Assembly (NCBI GenBank): GCA_037442485.1 | Contig: JBBIQE010000005.1 | Span: 1-58,683, forward strand | From: Candidatus Methylomirabilis sp. | GTDB taxonomy: Bacteria; Methylomirabilota; Methylomirabilia; Methylomirabilales; 2-02-FULL-66-22 | DNA: 58,683 nt | Reading direction: 5' to 3' | Shown here: one piece after another, positions 21,779-46,894 of the stretch | Position numbering within the stretch: position 1 is the stretch's first letter | Layout: each line of letters begins with the position of its first letter | Translations under genes and position numbers: made by a program | Notes under the pieces: model-generated | What the model saw: the letters and a program-made list of their open reading frames with translations, nothing else | Told to the model about the DNA's origin: nothing | Database searches by the model: none

Positions 21779-22219
21779 TCAAGGACGGGAAAGAACCTCA
21801 ACCACACCTGCCGTTCCGTTGACCCGGACGCGGTCGCCCGTCCGGAGGGCCTCGAGGGGGTTCGCGTCCAGACCGTCCACGATGGGGATCCGGACCTGGA
21901 AGAAGGCCTCGGCGAGGATGGCGCACATGACGATCATGGGCTCGCTCGTGACGTTCACGATGGCGGCGGGGGCGCAGCCGTTGCGCACGGCCTCGAGGAA
22001 GATGCCGGGAGTCCCCGTGGAGCCTCGCCCGTAGGGGAACACGAACACCTTGCCCTTGACGGAGGCGCCGCAGAGCTCGTGCCGCCTGTCTATCACGATC
22101 CCCGTCCGGGGATCCATGCCCTGCCAGAAGCCGAAGGGCTGCCGGGAGACGATCGCCTCGCCCTCGCAGGCGCCGGCGGCGCAGCCCCGCCCCCGCAGGA
22201 TGACGCCCGCATGGCTCAT
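21779..22219 (-). CDS. aconitase X swivel-domain subunit (DUF126)
   Basis: GEAIVSRQPFGFWQGMDPRTGIVIDRRHELCGASVKGKVFVFPYGRGSTGTPG..NGCAPAAIV fits the DUF126 pattern. The ATG overlaps the upstream stop (ATGA). Confidence 0.8.
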   Translation of the reverse strand: MSHAGVILRGRGCAAGACEGEAIVSRQPFGFWQGMDPRTGIVIDRRHELCGASVKGKVFVFPYGRGSTGTPGIFLEAVRNGCAPAAIVNVTSEPMIVMCAILAEAFFQVRIPIVDGLDANPLEALRTGDRVRVNGTAGVVEVLSRP

Positions 22220-23457
22220 GGCCGCTCCACCCGTCCGGTGAGGGCGGCCTGGATGCAGGCCTCGGTGCTGGTGAAGACGCACTCGCTGCCGACCGTGGTG
22301 GGGGTGTAGTAGGCGAACTTCCCCGAGTCGGTGGCGAGCCGCCGGAATCCCCAGGCCCCCAGCGGGCAGTCGTTGTGGCAGGTGCCGACCATCAGCCTGC
22401 CCCCGGCCCGCTCGATCACCTGGACATATCCCATCCTGCGGGCCATCTCCTCCACCACGCTATTCGTGCAGACCCACAGCTGGACGCCGGGATGGACCCG
22501 CTTGCCGTCGAGGAGGGCGGCGTAGCGGCGCATCTGGTCAATGGAGGCGTGGGGGCAGCCCACGCCCACCACGTCCACCGGTCCCCCTTCCCCGGTGCTC
22601 ATCTGGTCCAGGATCCGGGCGATCTCCTGTCTGCCCACGCGGAGGCGCTCGACCGGGGGCCGCCCGCCGAAGGCCTCCTCCATCGTGCGGGCCTCCGGCG
22701 TGATGCCGACCATGTGATAGAGGGCGACGGAGCCGCTGGCCGCGGCCGCCGCCCCGAAGGCCTTCAACTGGTCGAAGGTCGCCCGCGGCAGGCCGGCGAT
22801 CACGGGGATCCGGTCGCCCACCCTCTGGCCGACGAGGTAGCCCAGGGCCGGGAAGTAGTGATCCGCGAATCCCGCGGAGAGGTCGGGGTCCAGCTCGAAG
22901 AGGACCTCGCCCCGGCGGCGCTCCGGCAGATGCAGGCCGAAGCGGGGAACGCGCCCCGTCAGGGCGGCGCACAGATCCACGTAGGCGGCCAGCCGGTTGG
23001 TCCGCGCCCCGATGACCGAGTTGGCGAAGATGACGGCGCTGGATTCCGACCAGCCGAGGTCCTCGCCGAACCTGGGCACGTTGAAGGTGGTGTACGGCGT
23101 GCAGGTCCAGGTGGGGATCACGCCCATCCGGTCGAGCAGCTCCGCGATCCTGATCTGCCGTTCGGCGTACTCCGCGGGGGTCTTGAAGTCCCGCCAGCGG
23201 GCGAAGTCGATGGAGCCGGGGTCGGAGGTGGTGCGCACCTTCACCCGGGCCCCCTGCTCGGCGAGCCGGGTATAGATCTCGATCCCCGCCTCGCCGGCGA
23301 TCTGGTACGAGGAGGCGACCAGGTGGGCGCTGGCGATCTCCACCAGGCGGTCGGCGCCGTAGACCTCGCCCAGCTTCACCAGGACGCCCAGGGCGATCCG
23401 CTGGGGCTCCCCGCCCGCGCCGTCGAGGATCCGCCTCTCCTCATCCGTGAGCCGCAT
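22216..23457 (-). CDS. aconitase X catalytic subunit (DUF521)
   Basis: MRLTDEERRILDGAGGEPQRIALGVLVKLGEVYGADRLVEIASAHL... fits the DUF521 N-terminal pattern. 413 aa. Confidence 0.85.
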   Translation of the reverse strand: MRLTDEERRILDGAGGEPQRIALGVLVKLGEVYGADRLVEIASAHLVASSYQIAGEAGIEIYTRLAEQGARVKVRTTSDPGSIDFARWRDFKTPAEYAERQIRIAELLDRMGVIPTWTCTPYTTFNVPRFGEDLGWSESSAVIFANSVIGARTNRLAAYVDLCAALTGRVPRFGLHLPERRRGEVLFELDPDLSAGFADHYFPALGYLVGQRVGDRIPVIAGLPRATFDQLKAFGAAAAASGSVALYHMVGITPEARTMEEAFGGRPPVERLRVGRQEIARILDQMSTGEGGPVDVVGVGCPHASIDQMRRYAALLDGKRVHPGVQLWVCTNSVVEEMARRMGYVQVIERAGGRLMVGTCHNDCPLGAWGFRRLATDSGKFAYYTPTTVGSECVFTSTEACIQAALTGRVERP

Positions 23458-23478
23458 GCATCCTTCCCGACCTCGAGG

Positions 23479-24162
23479 CTACAGACCGAGGTACGCCACC
23501 TTGACGTGCGGGTTCTCCAGGAGGTCCCGGCTGGGCCCCTGGAGGACGACCTGGCCGCCTTCCAGGACGTAGCCGCGATCCACGAGGCCCAGGGCCCGCT
23601 GGACGTTCTGCTCCACCAGCAGGATGGCGATCCCTTCCCTCCGCACCTCGGCGATCTTCTCGAAGGTAAGATCCACGACGAGGGGGGCGAGGCCGAGGGA
23701 GGGCTCGTCGAGCATCAGGCCGCGCCCCACAGCCAACATCTGCTGCTCCCCGCCCGACAGGGTCCCCGCACGCTGGCGCCGCCGCTCGGCCAGGCGGGGG
23801 AAGATCCCGTACACCCACTCCAGGCTCTCGCGGCGGCGGGCCTTGGGGCCCGGGAGGTAGGCGCCCAGCTCCAGGTTCTCCTCCACCGTCATGTCCGGAA
23901 GCACCCGCCGTCCCTCGGGGACGTGGGCGATGCCCAGGCCGGCGATCTCGTAGGGCGGCCGGTGGTCCACGCGAGTCCCGTCGAAGAGGACGGCGCCGCG
24001 CCGCGGCCGGAGGAGGCCCGAGATCACCCGGAGGAGGGTGGACTTGCCCGCCCCGTTCGCCCCGATGACGGAGACGCTCTCGCCCGGGCCGATGGCCAGG
24101 CTGATCCCCCGCAGGACCGTGACCTCGCCGTAGGCCGCATCCAGGTCCCGGATCTCAAGCAT
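23479..24162 (-). CDS. LivF-like ABC ATP-binding protein (short signature-to-Walker-B spacing)
   Basis: [44 protein letters not shown]. ATG 24162 overlaps livG-like by 8 nt. Confidence 0.85.
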   Translation of the reverse strand: [227 protein letters not shown]

Positions 24163-24889
24163 GGCGGTACTCCGCCCCCAGGTAGGCTTGAATGACCCGC
24201 GGATCCGACGAGATCTCCTTGGGCTGGCCCTCGGCAATCTTGGTGCCCTGGTCCAGGACGATGATCCGGTCGGACAGGGACATGACGGCCCGCATGACGT
24301 GTTCGACCACGACGACCGTGAGGCCCCGATCCCGCAGCCGGCCGATGAGGCGTATGGCCTCCCCCATTTCGGTGGGGGTGAGGCCGGCCATGGTCTCATC
24401 GAGGAGGAGCAGCCGCGGCTCGGTTCCGAGGGCCCGGGCCACCTCCAGGCGCCGCTGGTCGATGGTGGTGAGGCTCCCCGCCTCGGTGTGGGCGCGACCC
24501 TCCAGGCCGACCAGCCGGAGGAGCTCCTCCACCCGGACCGCCGCGGCCGTCGGGTTCGGGTGCCGGAGGAGGGCGCCCATCAGCACGTTCCGGAAGACCG
24601 TGAGGTCGCGGAAGGGCTTGGCGATCTGGAAGGTCCGGCAGATTCCCCGGGCGCAGATCTCGTGGGGCTTCTGACCCGTGATGTCCTCGCCGGCGAAGCG
24701 GACCCGCCCGTGATCGGGACGGTAGAAGCCGGTGATCAGGTTGAAGGTGGTCGTCTTCCCGGATCCGTTGGGGCCGATCACGCCCAGTATCTCTCCCGGG
24801 CGGACCGAAAACGACAGGCCCAGGACGGCCTGCACGCCGCCGAACCGTTTGCCGAGGTTCTCCACCTCGAGGAGCGGGGCATGGCTCAT
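24155..24889 (-). CDS. LivG-like ABC ATP-binding protein
   Basis: [46 protein letters not shown]. The ATG overlaps the upstream stop (ATGA). Confidence 0.9.
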   Translation of the reverse strand: [244 protein letters not shown]

Positions 24890-25884
24890 GGGGTCGCGGC
24901 CCCCAGGGCGGGCAGGCGGGAGAGCACCCATCCGTACAGCCGGGCGACCCACGGGAAGACGCCCCGCGGGCGCCACAGGATCACCGCCACGAGCAACCCG
25001 CCGTACACCATCAGCTCCAGGCCGGGGTACTGCCCGGCGAAAACGACCTGGGTGGACTGGATGAAGGATTCCATGATCACCGCCCCGATCGCCGGTCCCA
25101 AAATCGTCCCCACCCCCCCCACGATGGCGACCAGGGCGATCTGCACGCTCAGGCCGAGGCCGAAGACGCTGTCGGGATGGATCACGTAGGTGTACTGGGC
25201 ATAAAAGACGCCCGCGACGCCGGTGATGAAGGCGCTGAGGGCCAGGGCCCTCGCCTTCGCCCGGGACGAGTTGATCCCCAGGGCCTCGGCCGCATCCTGG
25301 TTCTGGCCGATGGCGACGAGGTAATGCCCCAGGCGCGCCTGCTCCATACGGCGGGTGACGAGGACGCTGGCCACGGCCAGGAGGAGCGCGATGTAGTAGT
25401 AGGGGAACTTGGACTCGAACTGGAGGAGCCAGGGGGCATTCCCCTTGAAGGGAACCGTCAGGCCCTGGGCGCCGTTGGTGATCTCGCGGAAGTGCAGGAC
25501 CAGCAGGCGCAATGTCTCGGCCAGCCCGATGGTGGCGATGGCGAAATAGGGCCCCTGGAGCCGGAAGCAGATGATGCCGATGGGCCAGCTCAGCAGCAGG
25601 GCGCAGAGGCCCCCCAGCCACAGCGTGATCCAGGGGGAAAGGCCGTACCAGTTCACGAGGAGCGTCGAGACGTAGGCCCCGGTGCCGAAGAACGCCGCAT
25701 GGCCCAGGGAGAGTTGGCCGCCGTAGCCGCCGATGAGGTTCCAGGCCTGGCCCAGGACGACGAAGATGGCCATCATGACCAGGATGTGGATGTAGAACGG
25801 GTTCGGCAGAAGATGCGGGAGCACCATCAGGAAGAGCAGGATGGCGGCGGGAACGTAGTTCTCGGGCGACAGGGCAGCCTTCAC
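24886..25884 (-). CDS. LivM-like ABC permease
   Basis: GQAWNLIGGYGGQLSLGHAAFFGTGAYVS is the LivM signature region. Confidence 0.9.
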   Translation of the reverse strand: MKAALSPENYVPAAILLFLMVLPHLLPNPFYIHILVMMAIFVVLGQAWNLIGGYGGQLSLGHAAFFGTGAYVSTLLVNWYGLSPWITLWLGGLCALLLSWPIGIICFRLQGPYFAIATIGLAETLRLLVLHFREITNGAQGLTVPFKGNAPWLLQFESKFPYYYIALLLAVASVLVTRRMEQARLGHYLVAIGQNQDAAEALGINSSRAKARALALSAFITGVAGVFYAQYTYVIHPDSVFGLGLSVQIALVAIVGGVGTILGPAIGAVIMESFIQSTQVVFAGQYPGLELMVYGGLLVAVILWRPRGVFPWVARLYGWVLSRLPALGAATP

Positions 25885-25966
25885 GCGCTTGCCCTCCCTC
25901 GGCGGACCGTTCTCGGCTCGCCGCCGCCCAGGCTGTGGCGCGGGGACTGGGCGCTCGGTGCGGCGT

Positions 25967-26833
25967 TCATGCCTGTCCCCGCAGGCCCGAGGGCTTGAAG
26001 ACCAGGGTCGCCACCAGGATGGCGAAGACCACGACCAGACCCAGGTCGGCCCCGGCGAAGAGGATTCCCAGGGATTCCGCCACCCCCACGATGAGGGACG
26101 CCAGGAGGGCCCCCTCGATGCTGCCCAGGGTCCCCAGGATCACCACGACAAAGGCGATGAGGACGAAGATCACACCCACCGTCGGGAATACGTAGAAGAA
26201 CGGGACGATGAGACCCCCCGCCGCGCCGGACAGGGCGGCCCCCAGGCCCACGGCCAGCAGATACATCCGGTCCGGATTGATCCCGAGGAGCATGCTCACC
26301 TCCCGGTCTTGGGCCACCGCCCGCAGGGCCTTTCCCACGTCCGTCCTGAGGAGGAAAAGGGCCAGCAAGCCCGCCAGCAGGAGCGCCCCGGCGAAGGCGA
26401 ACAGCCGGGGCACCGGGAGGGTGATCCCGCCCACGCGGAGGGTCCACTCCGAATAGACGGTCTTGACCGAGCGGAAGTCGGCCGTGAAGAAGAAGAGGGC
26501 GGCGTTCATGAGGACCACCGACAGCCCCACGGTCATGAAGATCTGGGCAAGATCGGGGGCCTGCAGGATGGGGCGGAAGAGGAAGTGCTGCACCAGGACC
26601 CCGAAGAGGAAGAGCAGGGGCATGGTGATGAGCAGGGACAGGTAGGGGTCGATCCCCCACAGCTTCCACAGCCAGTAGGTCGCGTACATCCCCAGCATCA
26701 CGAACTCGCCCTGGGCGAAGTTGACGATCCGGACGACGCCGAAGATCAGGGTGAGCCCGATGGCCACCAGGGCGTAGATCCCTGACATGAGGAGGCCGGT
26801 GAGGAGGCCCTGCAGAAACGTGGTGAAGTCCAT
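25967..26833 (-). CDS. LivH-like ABC permease
   Basis: MDFTTFLQGLLTGLLMSGIYALVAIGLTLIFGVVRIVNFAQGEF. ATG 26833; the ORF-track start at 26842 is a TTG. Confidence 0.9.
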   Translation of the reverse strand: MDFTTFLQGLLTGLLMSGIYALVAIGLTLIFGVVRIVNFAQGEFVMLGMYATYWLWKLWGIDPYLSLLITMPLLFLFGVLVQHFLFRPILQAPDLAQIFMTVGLSVVLMNAALFFFTADFRSVKTVYSEWTLRVGGITLPVPRLFAFAGALLLAGLLALFLLRTDVGKALRAVAQDREVSMLLGINPDRMYLLAVGLGAALSGAAGGLIVPFFYVFPTVGVIFVLIAFVVVILGTLGSIEGALLASLIVGVAESLGILFAGADLGLVVVFAILVATLVFKPSGLRGQA

Positions 26834-26844
26834 GGCACACAAAA

Positions 26845-26879
26845 CCCCCCCGCCCCCTTTTTCCGAGGGGGCGAGGGGG
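26845..26879. repeat. GC-only hairpin between binding-protein and permease genes
   Basis: CCCCCCCGCCCCC-tttttccga-GGGGGCGAGGGGG. Confidence 0.4.
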
Positions 26880-26899
26880 ATTCCATGACACGGGAGGAT

Positions 26900-28174
26900 C
26901 TACCCGCGCTTGTCCCAGGCGGGGACCGGCCAGACCGGCTTCACCCGGGAGTCAGAGGGGGGGTACACGGTGCGCAGCTCCCCCTTCTGCCACTGGGTCA
27001 TGACCGGGTGGACCCACTTGTTCCAGCCGGTGTCGTCGAATTCGACCCGGCAGCCGGGCATGACCGACCCGGGGCCCTTGGTCAGGTTCGTCTTGGCCAG
27101 GGCATCCCGGACCTTCACGGGGTCCGTCGAGGCGGCCCGCTCCAGGGCATCGGCCAGGACCCAGATCATCACGTACGCCTCGCCCGCATGCTCCATCAGG
27201 AACTCGCCGAATCGCTTCTGGTAGGCGGCCGCGATGGCCGGCACCTCGGGGCAGTTGATGTCATAGTTCCAGGAGCCGACGGAGAAGACGTACTCGGAGT
27301 CCTTGCCGAGGTCTTTGTAGAAGTCGGGAATCAGGTAGCCCGCCCCCCCGGCGATGATGCCGGCATTGACGTTGAGCTGCTTCATCGTCCGGATGATCAG
27401 CAGGGCGTCGGTAATGTAGGAGACGGGGAAGAGCAGGTCGGGCTTGGCCGCCTTGATCTTGTTGACCAGCGGCGTGGCGTCGGTGAACTTGGCGGTATAG
27501 GGTTCGGCCATGACCACCTCGAAGCCCACCTTCTTGGCCCCCTCGATGAGGCCCTTGGAGGTCGAGGTCCCGTAGTCGGTGTCCTCGTACACGACCGCGG
27601 CCCGCTTGCCCTTTCCGGCGAGCTTGCCGGCGAACTCCATCTGCATCTCGCCGAACATGGTGGCCTTGGGCGACACCTGGAAGGTGAATTTGAATCCCCG
27701 CTCGGTGAGCTTGTTGGCGATGGATCCGGTGAGGAAGGGGATCTTGTACCGCTCGGCCACCTCGGTGGCCACCAGGGTGTAGGTGCTCACGTAGGAGCCG
27801 GTGGCGGCCGCCAGGTTCCCCGTGGCCATGAGCCGCTCGGCCTGGTTCCGGGTGACGCCGGGGTCGCTCTGGATGTCGGCGTAAATCGGCTTCAGCCTGG
27901 CGCCGCCCAGGGATTTGATCCCGCCGGCCGCATTGACATCGTCCACGGCGAGCTTCACCGCGTTCTCGCACATCTGGCCGAAGCGCGCCTGGGATCCCGA
28001 GGTGGGATACAGGACCCCGATGTTGACCTCCTTGGCGGCCGCGGCCGTCACCTTGCGCAGGGCCAGGCCACTCATCCCCGCGCCGACCCCCAGACCGGCC
28101 GCCCCCTTGAGGAAGTCGCGCCGGCTGACCGGATGGCGGAATCGTTGCCTCGAGACCCGGTGACCCTTCTGCAT
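26900..28174 (-). CDS. LIV-type substrate-binding protein with twin-arginine signal
   Basis: SRRDFLKGAAGLGVGAG is a canonical Tat motif. NIGVLYPTSGSQARFGQMCENAVKLAVDDVNAAGGI is typical of the Leu/Ile/Val-binding family. Confidence 0.85.
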   Translation of the reverse strand: MQKGHRVSRQRFRHPVSRRDFLKGAAGLGVGAGMSGLALRKVTAAAAKEVNIGVLYPTSGSQARFGQMCENAVKLAVDDVNAAGGIKSLGGARLKPIYADIQSDPGVTRNQAERLMATGNLAAATGSYVSTYTLVATEVAERYKIPFLTGSIANKLTERGFKFTFQVSPKATMFGEMQMEFAGKLAGKGKRAAVVYEDTDYGTSTSKGLIEGAKKVGFEVVMAEPYTAKFTDATPLVNKIKAAKPDLLFPVSYITDALLIIRTMKQLNVNAGIIAGGAGYLIPDFYKDLGKDSEYVFSVGSWNYDINCPEVPAIAAAYQKRFGEFLMEHAGEAYVMIWVLADALERAASTDPVKVRDALAKTNLTKGPGSVMPGCRVEFDDTGWNKWVHPVMTQWQKGELRTVYPPSDSRVKPVWPVPAWDKRG

Positions 28175-28273
28175 GGTGGCTCCCTCCTCGGTATGCGGTT
28201 TCTTTCTCCGACGCGCCGGGATGGATTCTATTTGAAGGCCGCCCGGAAAGTCAACCGGCCTCCCCCTGCATCC

Positions 28274-29068
28274 CTACATCACCACGCCGCCGTCCACGTG
28301 CAGGGCCTGGCCGGTGATGTTGCGCGCCTCCTCCGAGGCCAGGAAAGCGGCGGCCCAGCCGATGTCCTCGGGCGTCTGCTCGCGCTTCATGGGGACGATG
28401 GCGTTCACCCGGCTCTCGAAGACCTGGCGCGGCGTCATCCCGGCGTACTGGCCGCCACCCTTGGCCATCCGCTCGGCCGTCTCCTGCCAGAAGGCGGTCC
28501 AGAGGATGCCGGGGCAGATGGCATTCACGTTGATGCCGTGCGCCGCCAGCTCCTTGGCCACGATCTTGGTGAAGGTGATCACCCCCATCTTGGAGACGCT
28601 GTAGGGGGGCATGGAGGGGGAGCTCATGGGACCGGCGATAGAGGCGATGTTGATGATCTTGCCGCTCTTCCGCTGGATGAAGTAGGGGGCGATGGCCTTG
28701 CAGGCGAAGAAGATGGACTTGACGTTGACGGAATAGACCCGGTCCCAGTCCTCCTCGACGTTGTTGGTGAAGGGAAGACCGGGCCTGCAGGCCACCCCGG
28801 CGTTGTTCACCAGGATGTCGATCTTCCCCAACTCTTTTCTGACCCGGTCGAAGAGCGTGGGGAAGTCGGCCTCCCTGGTCACGTCGGTCCGGACCGCGAT
28901 CGCCTTCCGGCCCAGGGCCTGGACCTCCTCCGCGACCCTGGCCGCGGCCTCGACCTGGAGGTCGGCGATGGCGATGTCGGCGCCCTCTCTGGCCATGCAC
29001 AGGACGATCCCGCGCCCGATGCCCATGGCCCCGCCGGTCACGATGGCTACCTTGCCTGCGAGTCGCAT
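28274..29068 (-). CDS. SDR-family oxidoreductase
   Basis: TGGAMGIGRG (TGxxxGxG), NNAG, and YSVSK (YxxxK). ATG 29068 is preceded by AAAGGAG. Confidence 0.9.
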   Translation of the reverse strand: MRLAGKVAIVTGGAMGIGRGIVLCMAREGADIAIADLQVEAAARVAEEVQALGRKAIAVRTDVTREADFPTLFDRVRKELGKIDILVNNAGVACRPGLPFTNNVEEDWDRVYSVNVKSIFFACKAIAPYFIQRKSGKIINIASIAGPMSSPSMPPYSVSKMGVITFTKIVAKELAAHGINVNAICPGILWTAFWQETAERMAKGGGQYAGMTPRQVFESRVNAIVPMKREQTPEDIGWAAAFLASEEARNITGQALHVDGGVVM

Positions 29069-29132
29069 GACCACTCCTTTCTCCGAGGCTCTCTCCGATC
29101 CGCAGCCTGCGTCGAGCGCAGGCGAGATGCTT

Positions 29133-29221
29133 CCGCAGATTCGCGCAGATTCCACCCCCTCCCACCCCTCCCCCTTCGGAGGGGGGAGGGCACGGGTGGG
29201 GGTGAAATCTGCCATCTCCGG
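29133..29221. repeat. GC-rich palindromic intergenic element, family 1, copy D
   Basis: CCGCAGATTCGCGCAGATT - CCACCCCCTCCCACCCCTCCCCCTTCGGAGGGGGGAGGGCACGGGTGGGGGTG - AAATCTGCCATCTCCGG. The core is nearly identical to copy B. Confidence 0.65.
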
Positions 29222-29234
29222 ATAGTTCAGTACT

Positions 29235-31124
29235 CTACCAGGTGTCGCCGGGTTTGGCCGCCCACTCGATCCCCAGCTCGGCCAGCTTGGCGAAGGTCGG
29301 CCAGCCGGTGTCCGGGTCCCACCCCTCCATCTGGTAGTACAGCCGGAGGGCCCGCCCGAACTCCGCGGGGTCAATCCGCACGCCCGTGAGCGGCCCGCGG
29401 GCGAAGGCCTCGTGCAGGCGGGCCGGGAGCTGCTCGTCCTTGGGGGTGATGCCCTCGCGGCAATTGATGACCCGGGCGAGCGCCGCCCCCCGCTCCGCCA
29501 CCTTGAACAGCTCCCACAGGCTGGTGTCCCAGCCGGTCAGGGCCCGGGCCAGGTTGACCACGGGCGTCGGGGGCAGGATGTCAATGGGCGCCGAGGCGAG
29601 ATGGCAGACGCCCAGCGAGCTGGCCAGGTTCCACCAGTGGTGGGCGTAGTAGTAGGCCCGCACCTTGCGCGGCGACAGCTCGCGGCGGGGCAGGGGCTCG
29701 CACAGGCCCAGGGGCTCGAGGGCGTGCCCGCCGGAGGGGTGGAACCCCTCGTAGGCCGGATCGTGCGGCGCCCGCATGTGGTCGGCGCCCCCGGGTGCGG
29801 TGGCGTAGGCCAGCGCCAGGCCCTGCTTGCCCCGCGGCTCGTGCATGGGGATCTCCTGTCCCTTGACGTGCATGGCGTACCGCTCGGATCCTTTGCCGAT
29901 CCGCTGGGCCGCCCGCTTCACCCCCTCGGCGAGGATGTCCCCGAGACCCTCGCGCCTGGCGATCCTCTCCGTCATCTGGAGCAGGGCCTCGGCATTGCCG
30001 AAGGTGAGCTCGATCCCGCCGGTGTCGGCATTGGTCAGGATGCCCCGCTCGAAGCACTCCATGGCGAAGGCGATGGCCACCCCGGTGGAGATGGTGTCCA
30101 TGACGTACTCGCCGCAGAGCTGGTGAAACTTGGCCAGGCTCTTGATGTCGCCGATCCCGCAAAAGGAGCCGCCGGCGGCGAGGGTCTCGTACTCGGGGCC
30201 GCCGTACTTGTCCGTCACCCCCAGCTCGGGCACCTCGACCTCGCGCTTGCAGGCGATGGCACAGGCGAAGCAGGTGCCCTCGTCGGTCAGGATGGTGGCC
30301 GCCATGTTCTGGCCGCTCATCTCCTGGGCGTACTCGAAGGAGCCCTCCTGGAAGTTGCGCGTGGGCAGGATGCCGTCGGTGCTGAAGGCCACCACGTTGC
30401 GCGAGGTGCCGAACTTGTGGAGCATGTCGGCGTTGCGGTCGTAGTGCTCGCGGAACCACTTCAGGACCGCCGCCAGGCCGGCCGGGTCCCTGGCTTCCAT
30501 CTTGCCCCGGCCCCGGACGACGATGGCCTTCAGCCGCTTGCTGGCCATGACGGCGCCCAGGCCGTTGCGGCCGTTGAAATGCTTCAGCTCGTTGACGATG
30601 TTGGCGAAGCGCACGCCGTTCTCGCCGGCGATCCCGCACTGCAGCACCCGCGCCCGCTTGTCCGTCTGCTCTTTGAGGGTATCCTGGGCCTCACCCGAGC
30701 GCTTCCCCCAGACGTGCGAGGCATCCCGCAGCTCCGCCGTCCCGTCGGCGATCCACAGATAGAGGGGGCGGGGAGACTGCCCCGTGACGATGATCCCGTC
30801 GAAGCCGGCCAGCTTCAGCTCCGGCCCCCACCAGCCGCCGGCCTCGGACTCGCCATAGCCGCCGGTGAGCGGCGACTTGGCCACCACGCTGAACCGGTTG
30901 GAGCCGGAGACGGGGGACCCCGTGGTGAGGCAGGTGGCGACGACCAGGATGTTGTCCGGTCCCAGGGGGTCCACCCCCGGCTTCAGCTCGCGGGCGAGCC
31001 AGTAGGCCCCCATGGCGTTTCCGCCCAGGTACATGCGGTAAATGAGCTCGGGAACCTCCTCGACCTGCGTCCTCCCCTTCGTCAGGTCCACCCGTAGGAA
31101 CTTTCCGTTGTACGCGCCCTGCAT
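29235..31124 (-). CDS. aldehyde:ferredoxin oxidoreductase (AOR family, tungstopterin-type)
   Basis: GKFLRVDLTKGRTQVEEVPELIYRMYLGGNAMGAYWL..SPLTGGYGESEAGGWWG..CFACAIACKR is the AOR family pattern. 629 aa. Confidence 0.9.
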   Translation of the reverse strand: MQGAYNGKFLRVDLTKGRTQVEEVPELIYRMYLGGNAMGAYWLARELKPGVDPLGPDNILVVATCLTTGSPVSGSNRFSVVAKSPLTGGYGESEAGGWWGPELKLAGFDGIIVTGQSPRPLYLWIADGTAELRDASHVWGKRSGEAQDTLKEQTDKRARVLQCGIAGENGVRFANIVNELKHFNGRNGLGAVMASKRLKAIVVRGRGKMEARDPAGLAAVLKWFREHYDRNADMLHKFGTSRNVVAFSTDGILPTRNFQEGSFEYAQEMSGQNMAATILTDEGTCFACAIACKREVEVPELGVTDKYGGPEYETLAAGGSFCGIGDIKSLAKFHQLCGEYVMDTISTGVAIAFAMECFERGILTNADTGGIELTFGNAEALLQMTERIARREGLGDILAEGVKRAAQRIGKGSERYAMHVKGQEIPMHEPRGKQGLALAYATAPGGADHMRAPHDPAYEGFHPSGGHALEPLGLCEPLPRRELSPRKVRAYYYAHHWWNLASSLGVCHLASAPIDILPPTPVVNLARALTGWDTSLWELFKVAERGAALARVINCREGITPKDEQLPARLHEAFARGPLTGVRIDPAEFGRALRLYYQMEGWDPDTGWPTFAKLAELGIEWAAKPGDTW

Positions 31125-31224
31125 GCCGTCCTCCTCGTGATGTCGAAGTGAAGAATGCGGCCCCGTGGCCGGCCTCTGCCCGGGCGATGCTGCCTCGCTT
31201 GGCCCTGGCAGGAAAGGCCCAAGG

Positions 31225-32166
31225 CTATCGGCGCCACTTCGTCAGGTGCGACCGCGCGGCCTCGGCCACGTGGCGCGCGGTGACGCCGTACTTGTGCAGC
31301 AGCGCGTCGTTGGGGGCCGATTCGGCATAGACGTCCCGGATCCCGACCCGGGCGAGCGGGGTGGGGCGGTGCTCGGAGAGGGCCTCGGCCACGGCGCCGC
31401 CGAGTCCCCCGAGGATGCTGTGCTCCTCGGCCGTCACGACGAGGCCGGTCCGCTCGGCCGCGGCGATGACGGCGTCCACATCCAGCGGCTTCAGCGTGGG
31501 CACGTGCAGGACCAGGGCCGAGATCCCCTGCGACTTCAGCAGGTCGGCCGCCTCGAGCGTCCGCGGCGTCTGGATGCCCGTGCTGATCAGGGCCACGTCG
31601 CCCCCGTCCCGGAGCTGCACGGCGCGGCCGATCTCGAACCGGTACGCGGCGTCGAAGATGACCGGGCTCGGGTCCCGCCCCAACCGGAGGTAGGCCGGCC
31701 CGTGCACGGCCACCAGGGCCTCCATCGCCTTCTCGACCTCGACCCCGTCGGCCGGCGCGATGACCGTCATGTTGGGCATGGACCGCATGATGGCCAGGTC
31801 CTGGATGGAGAGATGGGTCTTGCCCGTCTTGCCCGCCAGCAGGCCGCTGTAGTGTCCCGTGATCTTCACGTTGTTCCTGGGCTGGGCCACCACGATCCGG
31901 ATCTGGTCCAGGTCCCGCTTGACAAAGCAGGCGAAGGTGCTGGTGAAGGGGATGAAGCCCAGGGTGGAGAGGCCCGCGGCCATGCCGATCATGTTCTGCT
32001 CGGCGATCCCCACCTGGAAGAAGCGCTCGGGGAAGGCTTGGGCGAAGAGGACGGCGCGGGTGGAGGGCGCCACGTCGGCGTCCAGGACCACCAGGTCCGG
32101 TATCCGCTTGCCCAGGCGGACCAGGCTCTGTCCGAAGGCCTCCCGCATGGCCATGGGATCTGGCAT
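31225..32166 (-). CDS. transketolase, C-terminal (pyrimidine-binding) subunit
   Basis: MREAFGQSLVRLGKRIPDLVVLDADVAPSTR..FFQVGIAEQNMIGMAAGL. It starts 5 nt after the N-terminal subunit gene. Confidence 0.9.
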   Translation of the reverse strand: MPDPMAMREAFGQSLVRLGKRIPDLVVLDADVAPSTRAVLFAQAFPERFFQVGIAEQNMIGMAAGLSTLGFIPFTSTFACFVKRDLDQIRIVVAQPRNNVKITGHYSGLLAGKTGKTHLSIQDLAIMRSMPNMTVIAPADGVEVEKAMEALVAVHGPAYLRLGRDPSPVIFDAAYRFEIGRAVQLRDGGDVALISTGIQTPRTLEAADLLKSQGISALVLHVPTLKPLDVDAVIAAAERTGLVVTAEEHSILGGLGGAVAEALSEHRPTPLARVGIRDVYAESAPNDALLHKYGVTARHVAEAARSHLTKWRR

Positions 32167-32171
32167 GGCGC

Positions 32172-32999
32172 TCACCTCCTCACCGCCAGCTCGGCTCTGG
32201 CCTGCCGATACTCCTGCTCGTTGGGGGGCTTGGCGTGCCAGGCCGGCACGTTTTCCATGAAGGAGACGCCCTTGCCCTTGACCGTGTGCGCCAGCAGGAC
32301 GCCGGGCCGGCCCTGGACCCGCTGCAGCTCCTCCAGGCCGCCCAGGATGGAGGCGACATCGTGGCCGTCGCACTCGCGGACCTCCCAGCCGAAGGCGCGC
32401 CACTTCTCCGGGACCGGGTCCATGGGCATGGCCTTGGCGATGAAGTCGCTCAACTGGATCTTGTTCCAGTCCACGATGGCCGTCAGGTTGTCCAGGCGGT
32501 AGGCCGCGGCCGCCATGGCGGCCTCCCACACCTGCCCCTCCTGGATCTCGCCATCCCCCAGCAGGACGTACACGCGGAACTTCTTGCCGCGAAGGCGCGC
32601 GCCCAGCGCCATGCCGATCCCGGGGGAGAGGCCCTGGCCCAGGGAGCCCGAGGACATGTCCACGCCCGGGGTGTGCATATCGGGATGGCCCTGCAGGATG
32701 GAGTCCAGCTCGTCGTAGGTCTTCAGGACCTCCGGCGGGAAGAATCCGCGCTCGGCCAGGGTGACATAGTAGATGGGTGCGGCGTGCCCCTTGCTGAGGA
32801 TGAACCGGTCCCGATCCGGCCAGTCGGGCCGGGCCGGGTCGATCCGCAGCACCCGGAAATACAGGCAGGCCAGGATCTCGGCCAGGGAGAAGGACCCCCC
32901 GGGGTGCCCGGCCTGGGCGTGCCAGATCATGTCCAGGGTGCGGCGGCGCAGGCGATGGGCCACCTCCTGGATCTCGCCAACGGTGAGGAGTTCCTCCAT
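32172..32999 (-). CDS. transketolase, N-terminal (TPP-binding) subunit
   Basis: HAQAGHPGGSFSLAEILACLYF..SKGHAAPIYY..LLGDGEIQEGQVWEA. Confidence 0.9.
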   Translation of the reverse strand: MEELLTVGEIQEVAHRLRRRTLDMIWHAQAGHPGGSFSLAEILACLYFRVLRIDPARPDWPDRDRFILSKGHAAPIYYVTLAERGFFPPEVLKTYDELDSILQGHPDMHTPGVDMSSGSLGQGLSPGIGMALGARLRGKKFRVYVLLGDGEIQEGQVWEAAMAAAAYRLDNLTAIVDWNKIQLSDFIAKAMPMDPVPEKWRAFGWEVRECDGHDVASILGGLEELQRVQGRPGVLLAHTVKGKGVSFMENVPAWHAKPPNEQEYRQARAELAVRR

Positions 33000-33423
33000 A
33001 GTCACCCCCTTCGCGTTTGGATGCGTGAGCGCCCGCGCCCACGCCGGATGATGGGAGGGCCCGCGGCGCCGGCCGAGGGTCCGGGATGCGCCCGGGACCG
33101 CAGAGCCGGTCCGGGCATTCGGCCGAGACTCTAGCCCCTCGCGCCGGCCCTCGCAAGCCGGAGCGCGCAAATGCCTCGGAAAACATACATGCGCGGCGGG
33201 GATGCCGCCGGCACGCCGCCCCTCCGGTGCAGCCCCCGGATCTCCTCCGGCCCGTCGCCGAGCGACGAAGGGCGGCCCCGGGACCGGGTCTCGTCGCCCG
33301 CCCCGGGCTCCTCGACCCTGATCGCATCCGCCCCCGTGTCGGCCGGCCTCTCGGAGCGGAACGGCCCACCGGGATCCGGCGGAGGTCCAGGACCGCGAGG
33401 CCCTCCAGCGCCCCGGCCAGGCT

Positions 33424-34305
33424 TCACCTCGCCGCCTCGCCCCGGCCCCCGAGGAGCTGATCGAGGGGCGAGCGGGTCTCGCGCGGCGCCCAGGTCCCGC
33501 GCACCCAGGCGTAGGCCGGGTCGTCCGACGCCTGCATGCTCCGGACATCGCCGGCCAGGACATTCAGGTAGTAGCAGTGATACCCGGGGGCGACCGCCAC
33601 CGGGTGATAGCCCTCGCGGATCAGGACCAGGTCGTTGTCCCGGACCGTCAGGGTCTCGTCCACGCGGCCGTCGCCGGTGTAGAGGCGCTGGAGGGCGAAG
33701 CCGTCGGGGTGGCTCAACTTGTAATAGTAGGTCTCCTCCAGCTTCACCTCGCGGGGGGGATCGTGCCGGTCGTGCTTGTGGGGCGGATAGCTCGACCAGT
33801 TGCCGCTGGGCGTATAGACCTCGACGATCAGCAACCGGTGGGCGGGGAATTCCGGCTTCAGCAGGTGGACGATCCGCCGCGTGGCGTTCCGTCCGCCCCG
33901 GATCTCGACCTCCACATCCGGGGGCGAGATCAGGCGCGCCGGGAAGTCCCGGTCGGTCCGGGCGCTGCAGAGGGCGACCTCCAGGGGCCTCGTCGCCCGC
34001 AGCGCATAGGCGGTCCGTCGCGGCAGGTAGAGGGCGTGGGGCAGGCCGTCGAAGACGGTCGGTCGCTCTCCCAGGCCCTTCCAGGTTCCGGCCGTGGACT
34101 GCACGTCGCACTGGCCTCCCAAAACGACCAGGGCGGTCTCGTGATCCCCGGTCTCTGCCGACAGCGTTTCCCCGGGCCGAAGGGCCCGGACCCCGAAGCC
34201 GATGTAGCGCCAGGCCGCGCGCTCGGGACTCACCGAGTGGATCTCGCCCGCCCCCTCCGGCCCCAGGCGGTTCCCGTGAATCAGCGGATCAATCCTGGTC
34301 GTCAT
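33424..34305 (-). CDS. iolB: 5-deoxy-glucuronate isomerase-like (KduI/IolB family cupin)
   Basis: VYTPSGNWSSYPPHKHDRHDPPREVKLEETYYYK is the IolB signature region. ATG 34305 is preceded by GGGAGG. Confidence 0.8.
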   Translation of the reverse strand: MTTRIDPLIHGNRLGPEGAGEIHSVSPERAAWRYIGFGVRALRPGETLSAETGDHETALVVLGGQCDVQSTAGTWKGLGERPTVFDGLPHALYLPRRTAYALRATRPLEVALCSARTDRDFPARLISPPDVEVEIRGGRNATRRIVHLLKPEFPAHRLLIVEVYTPSGNWSSYPPHKHDRHDPPREVKLEETYYYKLSHPDGFALQRLYTGDGRVDETLTVRDNDLVLIREGYHPVAVAPGYHCYYLNVLAGDVRSMQASDDPAYAWVRGTWAPRETRSPLDQLLGGRGEAAR

Positions 34306-34495: not shown

Positions 34496-34593
34496 GGCGC
34501 CGCCCCCGGGCGGTCGCCCTTGCCGGGGGCCGATTCCCTCCCGTGAGCCGTGCGTGCCACAGACCTTGCGATACAGAAAGGAGAGAGCGGGCC

Positions 34594-35091
34594 ATGCTCA
34601 GTCAAGCGATGCAGGAGGCGCTCAACGCGCAGATCAGTGCCGAGATCAGCTCCGCCTACCTGTACCTGTCCATGGCGGCGTACTGCGCGGCCAGCAACCG
34701 CCCGGGGTGCGCCCACTGGATGCGCGTGCAGTGGCAGGAAGAGCTGGGCCATGCCCTGAAGCTGTTCGACCACATCCACGACCGGGGCGGGCGCGCCGTC
34801 CTCAAGGCCATCCCCCAGCCGGCCACGGAGTTCACGTCGCTCCTGGATGTCTTCCGGCAGGTCCTGGATCATGAACGGGACGTGACCGCGAGGATCCACC
34901 GGCTCTACGAGACGGCGGTCAAGGAGAACGATTACCCGGCCCAGGTCATGCTGCAGTGGTTCATCACCGAACAGGTGGAGGAGGAGAAGACGGCCGCCGA
35001 GGTCCTGGAGCAGCTCAAGCTGATCGGCGACCAGGGGCCCGCCGTGATCATGCTGGACCACCACCTGGGGATGCGCAAGGCGGGGGAGTAG
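34594..35091 (+). CDS. non-haem ferritin
   Basis: LNAQISAEISSAYLYLSMAAY...WQEELGHALKLFDHI...LQWFITEQVEEEK carries the ferroxidase-centre pattern of bacterial Ftn. AAAGGAGAG precedes the ATG. Confidence 0.9.
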   Translation: MLSQAMQEALNAQISAEISSAYLYLSMAAYCAASNRPGCAHWMRVQWQEELGHALKLFDHIHDRGGRAVLKAIPQPATEFTSLLDVFRQVLDHERDVTARIHRLYETAVKENDYPAQVMLQWFITEQVEEEKTAAEVLEQLKLIGDQGPAVIMLDHHLGMRKAGE

Positions 35092-35146
35092 CGAGGAGAC
35101 GGCTCGGGTGTCGCGTGGCCCGGCGGATCCGGGCGGAGGATGACCG

Positions 35147-35647
35147 ATGGCAACCCGCGATCAGGTTCTGGCCGAGGTGTACGAGCTGGCCCTGCAGAAC
35201 GACATGCACTACTTCGGGTGAACGCAGGCCGTGCTTGCAGCTTTGCAGGCGACGCTGGGCGTAGGCGACACCCTGGTGTTGAAGGCGGGCAGCGCCCTGG
35301 CGGGCGGGGTGGCCGTGCAGGGCGAGACCTGCGGGGCGCTGACCGGCGCCATCATGGCCCTGGGCTGCGTGGTCGGGCGGGAGCGGCTGGAGGACATCGC
35401 GCAGTACCAGCGGGCCAAGGAGCCGGCGCAGGAAATGTACCGGCGGTTCCGCGACGAGGTGGGGCACAGCATCTGTGCCGAGATCCACAAGCTCAAGTAC
35501 GGCCGGGTCTATCGCTTGTCCGATCCCGAGGAGGCGAAGGCCTTCCACCAGGACGGCGGACACAGCCGGACCGGCTGCCCCGAGGTGTGCGGGATCGCCG
35601 CCCGGATCGCCGCCGACATCATCCTGCGCCTGCGCGCGGGCGACTGA
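35147..35647 (+). CDS. C_GCAxxG_C_C family protein with in-frame UGA at the first conserved Cys (candidate selenocysteine, codon 25)
   Basis: ATG 35147 follows GGAGGA plus a 6-nt spacer. Translation reads MATRDQVLAEVYELALQNDMHYFG[TGA 35219-35221]TQAVLAALQ...GETCGALTGAIMALG...HSICAEI...GCPEVCG. The ORF track only reports the part after the TGA, from GTG 35231. Confidence 0.65.
35232..35251 (+). promoter_or_regulatory. SECIS-like stem-loop downstream of UGA 35219-35221
   Basis: 8-bp stem TGCTTGCA/TGCAGGCG (two G-U pairs) with a GCTT apex. The stem starts 10 nt after the UGA and the apex is 18 nt after it. Confidence 0.45.
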
Positions 35648-35658
35648 GGGGAGGGTCC

Positions 35659-36051
35659 ATGGTCACGATCCAGCCCTACTGCGCCAAGGGGGTGTTCGAC
35701 CCGCCCACCTACCACCAGGCCATCAAGGTCACGGGGGGCCAGACGATCCTCTTCCTCTCGGGGCAGGTGGCCTACGACGAGAAGGGCGCCCCCGCGCATC
35801 GGGGCGATTTCGTGGCCCAGGCGCGCGCCGTGTTCCGGGCCATCAGGGCCCAGGTGGAGGCGGGGGGCGGAACGGTCGCGAACATCGTGAAGGTCAACAC
35901 CTACCTCACCGACATTCGCTACCGGGCCGACCTGCTGCCGGTGCGGGAGGAGTTCTTCGGGAAAAAGATGCCGGCCTCCACCCTGGTCGAGGTCTCGGCC
36001 CTCGCCCACCCCGACTGGCTGATCGAGGTGGAGGCCATCGCGGTCCTGTGA
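35659..36051 (+). CDS. ridA: RidA/YjgF-family enamine/imine deaminase
   Basis: PPTYHQAIKVTGGQTILFLSGQVAYD...VKVNTYLTDI...PASTLVEVSALAHPDWLIEVEAIAVL. Confidence 0.9.
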   Translation: MVTIQPYCAKGVFDPPTYHQAIKVTGGQTILFLSGQVAYDEKGAPAHRGDFVAQARAVFRAIRAQVEAGGGTVANIVKVNTYLTDIRYRADLLPVREEFFGKKMPASTLVEVSALAHPDWLIEVEAIAVL

Positions 36052-36106
36052 CCGTCCGCGGGGCAAGAGGAGGGGCGCTCGCGGACTGAGAGGGGGCGGC
36101 GCGGCC

Positions 36107-36709
36107 ATGGCGACGTTGCATCTCGGCTTTCTCGCCTCCCACGGCGGCAGCAACATGCAGGCCATCATTGACGCCTGCAAGTCGGGGCGGCTGGATGCCA
36201 AGCCCTGCGTCGTGATCAGCAACAATTCCGGCTCCATGGCCCTGCAGCGGGCGAAGAACGAGGGGATCCCGCATTACCACATCAGCGCCCTGACCCACCC
36301 CGGCACCCTGGAGGACGAGGAGATCCTCCGGGTGCTGAAACGGCACGGCGTGGACACGGTGGTCCTGGCCGGCTACATGAAGATGCTGGGCCCCGCCACC
36401 CTGGGGGCCTACCGCGGCCGGATCCTCAACATACATCCCGCGCTGCTTCCCAAGTTCGGCGGAAAGGGCATGTACGGCAAGCGGGTGCACGAGGCGGTCC
36501 TGGCCGCCGGCGAGACGGTGACGGGCGTGACGATCCACATCGTGGACGAGCACTACGATACCGGGCCGATCATCGCCCAGTGCCAGGTGCCGGTCCTGCC
36601 GGAGGACACGGTGGAGTCGCTGGCCGAGCGGGTGCTGAAGCACGAGCACGTCCTGTACGCCGAGACCCTCCAGAAGATCGCCGACGGCCGGATCGTGTTG
36701 CCGAGCTGA
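36107..36709 (+). CDS. purN: phosphoribosylglycinamide formyltransferase
   Basis: LASHGGSNMQAIIDAC...VVLAGYMKML...ILNIHPALLPKFGG...GVTIHIVDEHYDTGPIIAQ. Confidence 0.9.
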   Translation: MATLHLGFLASHGGSNMQAIIDACKSGRLDAKPCVVISNNSGSMALQRAKNEGIPHYHISALTHPGTLEDEEILRVLKRHGVDTVVLAGYMKMLGPATLGAYRGRILNIHPALLPKFGGKGMYGKRVHEAVLAAGETVTGVTIHIVDEHYDTGPIIAQCQVPVLPEDTVESLAERVLKHEHVLYAETLQKIADGRIVLPS

Positions 36710-37323
36710 TGCGGGCGGCGCGGAGCCGGGACAGCCTGCGATCGGGACCTTGCCGATGGCAGGATATGGAACGCCCGGCGCCCGTGGAGCCGGTAGAGGC
36801 CGAAGCCCTGCTGGTCGAGTGCGAGAATGGTAGCCCATCCCAGCTCTCTCCCTCCCCACGGATGAACCCCATCCGGTCCCGCGGCAGGGCGCGCTGAAGC
36901 CTCTCCTGTCTTGGGGCTTTTCGAAACTTCGCCCCGCCTTCCCGCATGGGCGTTGCTTCCGGTGCGCGCAGCGCCAGACCATCGGTGCCCCCTCGGAGTG
37001 TTCTGTCAAGAGCCATCCGGGGACTGGAGGCGGGATGCGGCGCGCAGGAAACCGACGCCGAGGCTGAGCCGAGGCGAGGCTGACACGGGGTGGGGGAGCC
37101 CGTGGCGTTGGCGGGCGACCTCCGGGTTCCGAACCTGGTGGGGGTGGTCCAACTGGTATGCCTGGAGCGGGCCGGCACGGGCAGGCGGCGTCCCGGAGCC
37201 CGACCACCGGAAAATTTGCGGAGCCGAAAACCCGGGGGGCGGGAAGGGCCTCCCCATTCTCCTCCCGCCCCGCCGCCTGGTCTGTACCGAGCAGCTCTTC
37301 TCCCCGAAGGTTCCCCCCGGGTC

Positions 37324-42038: not shown

Positions 42039-42066
42039 GGCACGAGTCCTCCCCAATCCGAAATTA

Positions 42067-42215: not shown

Positions 42216-42226
42216 CTCCTTTTGGA

Positions 42227-43117: not shown

Positions 43118-43130
43118 GTTCCCTCCTGCC

Positions 43131-43880: not shown

Positions 43881-43963
43881 GACTCCTCTTGTCGGCGGGG
43901 CACCGACGGCTTCCGCCGTTGGCGGATTCGGGCCTTCGGGAAGGGTCGAACAGCCGAACGGTC

Positions 43964-45037: not shown

Positions 45038-45040
45038 GCC

Positions 45041-46764: not shown

Positions 46765-46790
46765 GTCCGCGGTTTTCGTCCCAACCAATT

Positions 46791-46889: not shown

Positions 46890-46894
46890 TCTCG

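Follow-up and report, generated by a model that had tools for sequence, protein, structure and literature searches.

Twelve minus-strand genes at positions 21779-34305 of a 58,683-nucleotide stretch of DNA (the whole stretch analysed, hereafter the window) from a metagenome-assembled genome (MAG) of Candidatus Methylomirabilis sp. encode, from first to last, a 5-deoxy-glucuronate isomerase (IolB), the two subunits of a split transketolase (TK; TKN and TKC), an aldehyde oxidoreductase of the AOR family, a short-chain dehydrogenase (SDR), a substrate-binding protein (SBP) with a LIV-type ABC importer (LivH, LivM, LivG, and LivF, or LivHMGF), and the large and small subunits of aconitase X (AcnXL and AcnXS). 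The explanation that we prefer, with a probability of roughly 0.55, is that this array is a mosaic, made up of three units that adjoin each other on the same strand: iolB; a TK-AOR unit, probably including SDR, that would provide a kinase-free ending for inositol breakdown; and a module in which the importer is coupled to AcnX. The window is contig C5 of a 3.07-Mb NC10/Methylomirabilota MAG (70.7% complete, ~68% G+C), in which a gene that was not found is not necessarily absent. Genes were called with a codon-usage caller trained on the window, together with inspection of start codons and ribosome-binding sites, and families were assigned by Pfam and NCBIfam profile searches. Comparisons within the genus were based on 20 other species-level genomes (1.7-7 Mb), whose members are not independent samples; genomes, contigs, and loci are referred to by labels beginning with G, C, and L, respectively. 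Because contigs are short, neighbourhood counts from metagenome contigs are lower bounds.

An association with inositol genes is evident for the TK. Both subunits match the transketolase model NF004559 (310 bits for TKN and 288 bits for TKC), and the translation of TKN contains the usual thiamine diphosphate (ThDP) and His motifs (GHPGG, KGH, GHP, and GDG..N). The Arg, Ser, His, and Arg of the distal anion (phosphate) site are kept in TKC (within AMRE, PST, GHY, and LGRD), and these are the equivalents of R318, S345, H416, and R474 of human TK. However, the otherwise invariant transketolase Asp of the GxDGxTH motif (D469 in E. coli and D424 in human), a residue that reads the hydroxyl of the substrate, is a Thr in TKC, the aligned motif being GKTGKTH here versus GEDGASH in the split TK of Carboxydothermus hydrogenoformans (6YAJ) and GEDGPSQ in human TK. 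This protein resembles TktA, human TKT, and 6YAJ in fold, in ThDP-binding and catalytic His motifs and in the anion-binding residues, and it shares the two-subunit layout with 6YAJ (314 bits), but it differs from them in the replacement of the conserved Asp by Thr, in that of the neighbouring Glu, Pro, and Gln by Lys, Lys, and Leu, and in having iol genes and AOR rather than pentose-phosphate genes as genomic partners. The same Asp-to-Thr change is present in the engineered E. coli TK variant D469T, which has an altered acceptor range and admits unnatural acceptors, and T469 and R520 have been proposed to contact substrate carboxylates (PMC5073344).

The Thr-type motif is common to the orthologues of the NC10 group to which the window belongs, to a paralogue on contig C55 of the same MAG, and to approximately 100 homologues with 62-68% identity from Chloroflexota and Thermoleophilia. 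In the maximum likelihood tree, every xTGKTH sequence falls into a single clade (support 100/94*), which also takes in the NC10 group, the C55 paralogue, and each of the iol-adjacent sequences that the tree includes. When TKC genes with at least 2.5 kb of free flank were counted across 80 metagenome loci and the complete TK-iol loci, IolB or IolD was found to adjoin 11 of 23 Thr-type loci, none of the 14 Asp-type loci, and one of 12 loci of other types; that is, Thr-type TKs are specifically enriched beside IolB/IolD. Two Thermomicrobiales-type loci (L107 and L108) carry the full order of Gfo/Idh/MocA, TIM barrel, TKN, TKC, IolB, and IolD.

IolB itself is a member of the KduI/IolB cupin family that scores above the cut-off of the 5-deoxy-glucuronate isomerase equivalog model TIGR04378, and in a control search this model gave matches only in the three inositol-using control genomes. 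Its identity to each of the nine IolBs that adjoin a TK in other phyla is 42-57%, compared with 30-44% to the same nine proteins for the second IolB of this genome (contig C14). A bona fide IolD (894 bits) is also encoded in the genome, together with an IolE-like gene (220 bits), on contig C55. IolD exceeds the cut-off in 12 of the 21 genus genomes (this one included), whereas IolC exceeds it in none of the 21 (best score 198 bits vs 300); in this MAG the best IolC score is 92 bits, and none of three genomes with TK-iol clusters has an IolC over the cut-off either. Since IolD and IolB are present and no IolC scores above the cut-off, the genus appears to need another use of the IolB product. 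Compared with the canonical myo-inositol pathway (IolG, IolE, IolD, IolB, IolC, IolJ, and IolA in Bacillus subtilis), this genome has the IolB equivalog in the array, IolD and the IolE-like gene on C55, and Gfo/Idh/MocA and TIM-barrel genes nearby in the window. It differs in the lack of an IolC over the cut-off, here and throughout the 21 genomes, in having a Thr-type split TK and AOR in place of kinase, aldolase, and semialdehyde dehydrogenase, and in a cleavage that would give C2 + C4 instead of C3 + C3.

Based on these observations, a route can be proposed in which IolB would isomerise 5-deoxy-glucuronate to 2-deoxy-5-keto-gluconate (DKG) and the Thr-type TK would take a C2 ketol unit off DKG or a close keto-sugar acid. 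DKG has the HOCH2-CO-CHOH head of a TK donor and, in addition, a distal carboxylate. Transfer of the C2 unit to an aldose phosphate would yield a ketose phosphate, the remainder would be the C4 aldehyde-acid 3-hydroxy-4-oxobutanoate, and AOR together with ferredoxin would convert the latter, probably to malate. The location of AOR directly 3' of the TK genes fits an aldehyde product of this kind, because oxidation of 3-hydroxy-4-oxobutanoate gives malate. The TK-AOR route would then replace the steps of IolC kinase, IolJ aldolase, and IolA. An earlier note on this DNA had suggested a route that yields an aldehyde and a ketose phosphate; a TK step with these products, the aldehyde being handled by AOR, agrees well with the placement of the TK in a clade tied to IolB/IolD in inositol clusters free of kinase and aldolase. 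A related logic is known from the sulfo-TK pathway, in which the 6-deoxy-6-sulfofructose transketolase SqwGH, a split TK, cleaves a non-phosphorylated anionic ketose and is followed by an aldehyde-handling enzyme; the resemblance is one of logic only, and sulfoquinovose genes are not present here.

AOR matches both domains of its family (AFOR_N, 245 bits; AFOR_C, 407 bits), and its best solved relative is AOR of P. furiosus (1AOR, 362 bits). A C-x2-C-x3-C motif for a [4Fe-4S] cluster is present in the translation, and the cofactor metal may be either tungsten or molybdenum. The order TKN-TKC-AOR is kept in six genomes including this one, and on an unrelated metagenome contig (L117) a Thr-type TKC is likewise followed by an AOR-family gene. 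The AOR family has 2-11 copies per genus genome where it was found, with six in this MAG, one of which, on contig C9, shows 77% identity. In G006, AOR (L025, 2119-4010) exists as two pieces, one with AFOR_N and a short one with AFOR_C, which may represent either a pseudogene or indel errors of a long-read assembly.

The position of iolB beside this unit could also be a matter of history, i.e., the TK-AOR-SDR set might act on some other keto-sugar or keto-acid, and IolB might have become its neighbour by local rearrangement. IolB orthologues (73-77% identity) are present in 6 of the 20 other genus genomes, and within the genus the IolB-TKN adjacency is unique to this genome. In G019, G016, and G012, IolB is not beside TKN and lies divergent from a block of ferritin, C_GCAxxG, RidA, and PurN genes, as it does here, while in G006, G007, and G015 the same block is found, partly or wholly, after AcnXS. 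The variable position of this block implies that the IolB-TKN junction is a point of rearrangement, and the placement of the NC10 TKs within the Thr-type clade, which the tree leaves ambiguous, is also compatible with such a history. However, the enrichment of Thr-type TKs beside IolB/IolD, the fact that the IolB of the window is most similar to TK-adjacent IolBs, and the presence of IolD and IolB in a genus whose IolC candidates stay below the cut-off all argue against it, and we consider that a purely historical origin of this neighbourhood is unlikely. An initial view of IolB as an accidental neighbour, which was based on its occurrence beside TKN in none of eight related loci, was revised in light of the links between this TK subfamily and IolB/IolD at other loci.

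The window and contig C55 contain other genes that deserve mention. The ferritin, C_GCAxxG, RidA, and PurN genes form a block with an 811-amino-acid (aa) TK-like gene (window 34543-39759; L016, L020, L024, L096, and L097), the position and orientation of which vary between species relative to the AcnX array, and the mobility of this block points to the IolB/TKN junction as a rearrangement hot spot. Downstream on the minus strand (window 41256-52356) are genes for two Gfo/Idh/MocA dehydrogenases, TIM-barrel proteins, an IMPase, a creatininase-like protein, and a sugar-type ABC importer; this cluster could supply inositol-derived intermediates to IolD, IolB, and TK. On C55 (L100, 841-10685), a second Thr-type split TK, 55% identical, follows the IolE-like TIM-barrel gene; it is divergent from Zn-ADH, creatininase-like, and TIM-barrel genes, with an MFS gene and IolD some 6 kb away. 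A similar set (Zn-ADH, TKN, TKC, creatininase-like, IclR, and TIM) was detected in a Thermoleophilia genome (L106).

With regard to transcription, the layout and all gene identities given by the earlier note are in agreement with our coordinates, junctions, and Pfam/NCBIfam assignments (Table 1). From iolB to acnXS, the junctions measure 424, -4, 100, 166, 99, 66, 82, -4, -8, 21, and -4 nucleotides (nt), with ATGA or GTGA overlaps at short junctions and the 424-nt spacer as the sole long gap. The reading of the array in the earlier note as a single operon or a single route for one imported substrate is unlikely, considering the promoter-like elements before TKN and SBP, the separation of the modules in G020, G013, and G016, the occurrence of IolB beside TKN in this genome only, and the fact that AcnX-side TKs elsewhere belong to other subfamilies.

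Table 1. Positions of the genes and predicted regulatory elements of the array in the window
Feature	Position	Strand	Family or description
IolB, 293 aa	33424-34305	-	TIGR04378 331 bits (cut-off 205); Pfam KduI
Spacer, 424 nt	33000-33423	-	holds promoter-like element P_tk
P_tk, promoter-like	AT-rich box 33190-33168; -35-like TTGCGA 33156-33151; -10-like TAGAGT 33133-33128	-	
TKN, 275 aa	32172-32999	-	Transketolase_N; split transketolase N-terminal (ThDP-binding) subunit
TKC, 316 aa	31225-32175	-	Transket_pyr + Transketolase_C; split transketolase Pyr + C subunit
AOR, 629 aa	29235-31124	-	AFOR_N + AFOR_C
SDR, 264 aa	28274-29068	-	adh_short
P_sbp, promoter-like	28225-28254	-	TTGACT-18-TAGAAT, upstream of SBP gene
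SBP, 424 aa	26900-28174	-	Peripla_BP_6 + TAT_signal
GC hairpin + T-run, attenuator-like	26845-26879	-	between SBP and LivH
LivH permease	25967-26833	-	BPD_transp_2
LivM permease	24886-25884	-	BPD_transp_2
LivG ATPase	24155-24889	-	ABC_tran
LivF ATPase	23479-24162	-	ABC_tran
AcnX large, 413 aa	22216-23457	-	PF04412, 486 bits
AcnX small (swivel), 146 aa	21779-22219	-	PF01989

Both putative promoters are consensus-like matches whose function is predicted. Within the 424-nt spacer, P_tk is situated ~110-190 nt upstream of TKN and consists of an AT-rich box followed by TTGCGA-17-TAGAGT. Five genus genomes share an alignable copy of it upstream of TKN, in flanks that are otherwise unalignable. G016 and G015, in which the TK genes are missing from this locus, have the element upstream of AOR, the match in G015 being weaker. 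A strict search for the P_tk box allowing up to five substitutions recovered only two copies, multiple alignments being more informative in this case. P_sbp, between SDR and SBP, scores 10/12 in a consensus scan, and the TTGACTTTCCGGGC box together with a -10-like element is kept in seven of nine genus genomes. The hairpin after the SBP gene is very strong, has a 14-bp stem with 12 GC pairs, and is followed by TTTTGTGTG; such hairpins with a T-run after the SBP gene are common in ABC operons, and this one probably sets the ratio of SBP to permease. An Rfam scan of the whole window at gathering thresholds gave no match, implying that the 424-nt spacer holds no riboswitch or known RNA. A decayed gene in the spacer was also considered and rejected, as tblastx against the fetched loci gave weak low-complexity matches except for the promoter-like block. 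The promoter-like elements argue for at least three units, i.e., iolB, TKN-TKC-AOR (probably with SDR), which would be transcribed from a promoter within the spacer, and SBP to acnXS. Because such elements precede TKN and SBP and the modules are separate in relatives, all twelve genes are probably not one operon.

Synteny within the genus points to the importer-AcnX module as the most stable part of the locus. An AcnX orthologue (77-86% identity) is present in 12 of the 20 genomes, the eight genus loci that were fetched first all carry SBP-LivHMGF-AcnXL-AcnXS complete and in unchanged order, and SBP-LivHMGF-AcnX is the sole block kept in every relative that has the orthologue and enough contig. 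What lies upstream of SBP is more variable. TKN-TKC-AOR-SDR is found there in this genome, G007, and G006 (where AOR is broken), in G019 with two inserted genes, and in G001 and G003 to the contig limit (TKN is off the G003 contig); G017 has AOR-SDR with one inserted gene, G015 has AOR with a Zn-ADH in place of SDR, G020 has SDR only, G014 has a different TK paralogue in divergent orientation, and G013 has unrelated genes. Accordingly, the ABC-AcnX block occurs without TK and AOR in G020 and G013. Conversely, AOR-SDR-ZnADH is present in G016 (96% complete), in which AcnX was not found. G001 had also been considered as a genome with TK-AOR but lacking AcnX; this was rejected, as its contig ends inside the SBP gene. 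SDR is located directly before SBP in G007, G006, G001, and G020, whereas two genes are inserted between them in G019 and one in G017. SDR may belong either to the TK-AOR unit or to the importer-AcnX module.

On the other hand, the eleven-gene order from TKN to AcnXS recurs in G019, G007, and G006 (75-92% protein identity), and in G001 and G003 as far as the contigs extend. Given this recurrence in relatives, the gene arrangement exceeds chance, and it might reflect one pathway in which a single imported substrate, a hydroxylated acid or a sugar acid, would lose water through AcnX before oxidation by SDR, isomerisation by the cupin, and cleavage by TK, with the resulting aldehyde oxidised by AOR. 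For example, a hexonate could be converted via 2-keto-3-deoxy-hexonate and 2,5-diketo-3-deoxy-hexonate to a C2 unit and formylpyruvate, and the latter to oxaloacetate. Several additional observations are in line with this possibility. Orthologues of the TK of the window are always upstream of the ABC-AcnX array where the contig permits a check, and SDR passes a sugar-dehydrogenase subfamily model (NF005559, glucose 1-dehydrogenase subfamily; 239 bits, cut-off 215). Elsewhere, TK genes lie within 10 kb of AcnX homologues in L047, L033, L042, and L060/L065, the TK of L047 being embedded between SDR and AcnX along with a LacI regulator and an Fe-ADH; such proximity in four or five lineages is above chance for 1-8 TK loci per genome.

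However, those AcnX-side TKs have other motifs and are outside the Thr-type clade. A TK-AcnX pathway shared across phyla was rejected on these grounds, the motifs being GPDGATH, G-GGPTH, and GADGATH, with the two sequences included in the tree falling outside that clade. In addition, conserved promoter-like elements precede TKN and SBP, the modules occur apart, AcnX orthologues with 67-82% identity are found beside acyl-CoA dehydrogenase, CoA-transferase, 3HCDH, and BKACE rather than sugar-acid genes, and no iol genes were found beside AcnX outside the genus. Taken together, a common pathway for an imported acid appears doubtful. A variant in which inositol-type cyclitols would be converted to C4 dicarboxylates by a single route involving all twelve genes seems less likely still: IolB would form DKG, TK would split it into 3-hydroxy-4-oxobutanoate and a C2 unit that enters the pentose-phosphate pool, a tungsten-type AOR with ferredoxin would turn the former into (D-)malate, and AcnX, as a dehydratase of D-malate type or for a related hydroxy-dicarboxylate, would give fumarate, with the importer scavenging the same acid.

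Several points count against the mosaic explanation that we favour. The eleven-gene array from TKN to AcnXS is kept in several species, which fits one pathway as well. The promoters are only consensus-like, and transcripts might continue past them, from iolB or from SDR into SBP. AOR and split TK are both highly expanded in the genus (up to 11 copies for the former and up to eight copies of the C-subunit per genome for the latter), which makes their adjacency less surprising, and the P_tk-like element that stands before AOR in G016, with a weaker version in G015, at loci that have no TK implies that AOR is not strictly dependent on this TK. The NC10 TK group is a separate branch of the Thr-type clade whose relationship to the iol-adjacent subclades is ambiguous in the tree, IolB adjoins TK within this group only in the present genome, and iol neighbours are missing from one of the Thr-type subclades (13 rows). 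Finally, the LivF of this MAG (window 23701-23760) has a gap between the ABC signature and Walker B, where all four aligned orthologues have the seven residues LMLRPRL, and this deletion may disable the importer. Since the deletion lies between two LML repeats, it is possible that it arose by slippage or by collapse of the assembly.

The importer-AcnX module was treated as separate because its partner genes vary and no iol gene is found by AcnX outside the genus. Under the mosaic explanation, SBP-LivHMGF-AcnXL-AcnXS would be expressed from its own promoter and import a hydroxy-carboxylate, and the Fe-S enzyme AcnX would remove water across C2-C3 of the imported acid, with a dehydrogenase from the neighbourhood, namely SDR in this array and Zn-ADH, 3HCDH, or Fe-ADH at other loci, acting before or after it. 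Both subunits are clear family members (cut-off 31.5 for the large subunit on PF04412; 93 bits on PF01989 for the small subunit, cut-off 27). Relative to solved AcnX structures, the large subunit keeps the Cys ligands C119, C301, and C360 as well as E138-S139, K380, and Y384, and the small subunit has the catalytic Ser in RGSTG and the equivalent of Trp35 of AtAcnX. In this family, the substrate is held at its carboxylate and beta-hydroxyl by the Lys and Tyr, and the small subunit provides the catalytic Ser (PMC8184944). Following the mechanism known for the family, AcnX of the window should remove water from a 3-hydroxy-carboxylate or add water to an enoate. The substrate-determining positions are different: the equivalent of Asp203 is Val47, the Thr72/Val64 position is Gly, and the equivalent of Ile206 is Ser, while Asn53 and Asn79, which bind the phosphate of mevalonate-5-phosphate, correspond to Ile53 and Asp79. 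The catalytic and substituted residues of the large subunit are invariant in 11 orthologues. The Type IIc-IIf subclasses of AcnX are uncharacterised, the landmark residues of both functions being absent from them (PMC8184944), and the residues found here fit the description of such an uncharacterised Type-II subclass.

The best solved match is TK1248/1249 of T. kodakarensis (7CNR/7CNS; 258 bits for the large and 91 bits for the small subunit), a Type IIb mevalonate-5-phosphate dehydratase. It shares with our AcnX the two subunits, three Cys ligands, the Glu-Ser pair, Lys, Tyr, and the catalytic Ser, but differs in the replacement of Asn53/Asn79 by Ile/Asp, and the protein of the window is in a bacterial host, is coupled to an importer, and has no mevalonate-pathway context. 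AtAcnX, which acts as a dehydratase of cis-3-hydroxy-L-proline, is similar in family, catalytic Ser, Lys, Tyr, and the Trp35 equivalent. The latter residue, the amino-acid-type importer, and the proline derivative bound by the nearest solved SBP might suggest that cis-3-hydroxy-L-proline is also the substrate here. However, of the set that binds this compound (Asp203, Thr72, Trp35, and Ile206) only the Trp is kept; the ring-nitrogen Asp203 is replaced by Val and Thr72 by Gly, and the Fe-S ligands are the three Cys of Type II, unlike those of AtAcnX (PMC8184944). Moreover, the score on NF051439 is far below the cut-off (327 vs 700 bits), and no hydroxyproline-pathway gene was present in the neighbourhoods examined. 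Thus, we regard this function as very improbable.

The range of AcnX neighbours outside the genus is broad, although a LIV-type importer and a dehydrogenase are always among them at the following loci. A Chloroflexia MAG (L054; AcnXL 49% identical) has LacI and Zn-ADH together with an SBP that is 60% identical; a deltaproteobacterial MAG (L047; 69%) has LacI, NAD-epimerase, SDR, a TK with the canonical Asp, and Fe-ADH; a betaproteobacterial locus (L030; 83%) has GntR/FCD, SDR, and 3HCDH; a Thermodesulfobacteriota locus (L101; 67%) has acyl-CoA dehydrogenase, 3HCDH, ADP-forming acyl-CoA synthetase, and BKACE; and an ENA metagenome contig (L023; 79%) has GMC oxidoreductase, GntR, BKACE, and LarA. 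The importer-AcnX block is also syntenic in Thermodesulfobacteriota and deltaproteobacterial MAGs, and soil metagenomes are rich in importer-coupled AcnX, with over 100 protein clusters that have at least 76% identity. AcnX large subunits with 79-83% identity were further detected in MAGs labelled as Xanthobacteraceae, Betaproteobacteria, Ramlibacter, Pseudolabrys, and delta proteobacterium (L027-L030, L033, L040, and L041), and the AcnX gene of L033 has a GC3 of 0.80 on a contig with 52% G+C. These occurrences suggest recent horizontal transfer, mis-binning, or chimeric assembly.

The importer has all expected domains: a Peripla_BP_6 SBP, two BPD_transp_2 permeases, and two ABC_tran ATPases with BCA_ABC_TP_C. 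A Tat signal is indicated for the SBP by the TAT_signal model (24.6 bits, cut-off 22.7) and the motif RRDFLKG, and matches to the LivG/LivF-like models of NCBIfam are below their cut-offs. The closest solved relative of the SBP is 8WCH (178 bits; next match 71 bits), i.e., SAR11_0655 with bound L-pyroglutamate (PMC11485210). Both belong to the same Peripla_BP_6 subfamily feeding LIV-type ABC importers, but the SAR11 locus has 5-oxoprolinase genes where this locus has AcnX, and the ligand need not be the same.

In an incomplete library of literature, we found no paper linking IolB or IolD to transketolase, none on a third AcnX function, and none on an AOR-ended TK-inositol module or an importer-AcnX module; likewise, the statement of the earlier note that no described pathway combines these genes met with no counterexample in that library. 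The enzyme families are all known, and it is their combination and the implied reactions that are not described. The locus adds an AOR-coupled version of the TK-inositol cluster in a phylum of aerobic-soil type, as well as a neighbouring AcnX module. As a carbon source derived from plants and soil, inositol is plentiful, and the textbook route for its breakdown depends on a kinase, an aldolase, and a semialdehyde dehydrogenase. If the proposed route is true, a TK-based ending would save ATP and send two carbons to the pentose-phosphate pool and four to malate, and AOR would link inositol breakdown to ferredoxin in a soil phylum that is uncultured and whose AOR family is unusually large. The Thr-type TK would then be a natural counterpart of the engineered D469T transketolases used in biocatalysis. 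As for AcnX, the protein encoded here falls in the subclasses to which the authors of the structural study assigned no function (PMC8184944), and if the single twelve-gene route were true, the locus would represent both a third AcnX function and an AOR-coupled, kinase-free inositol pathway.

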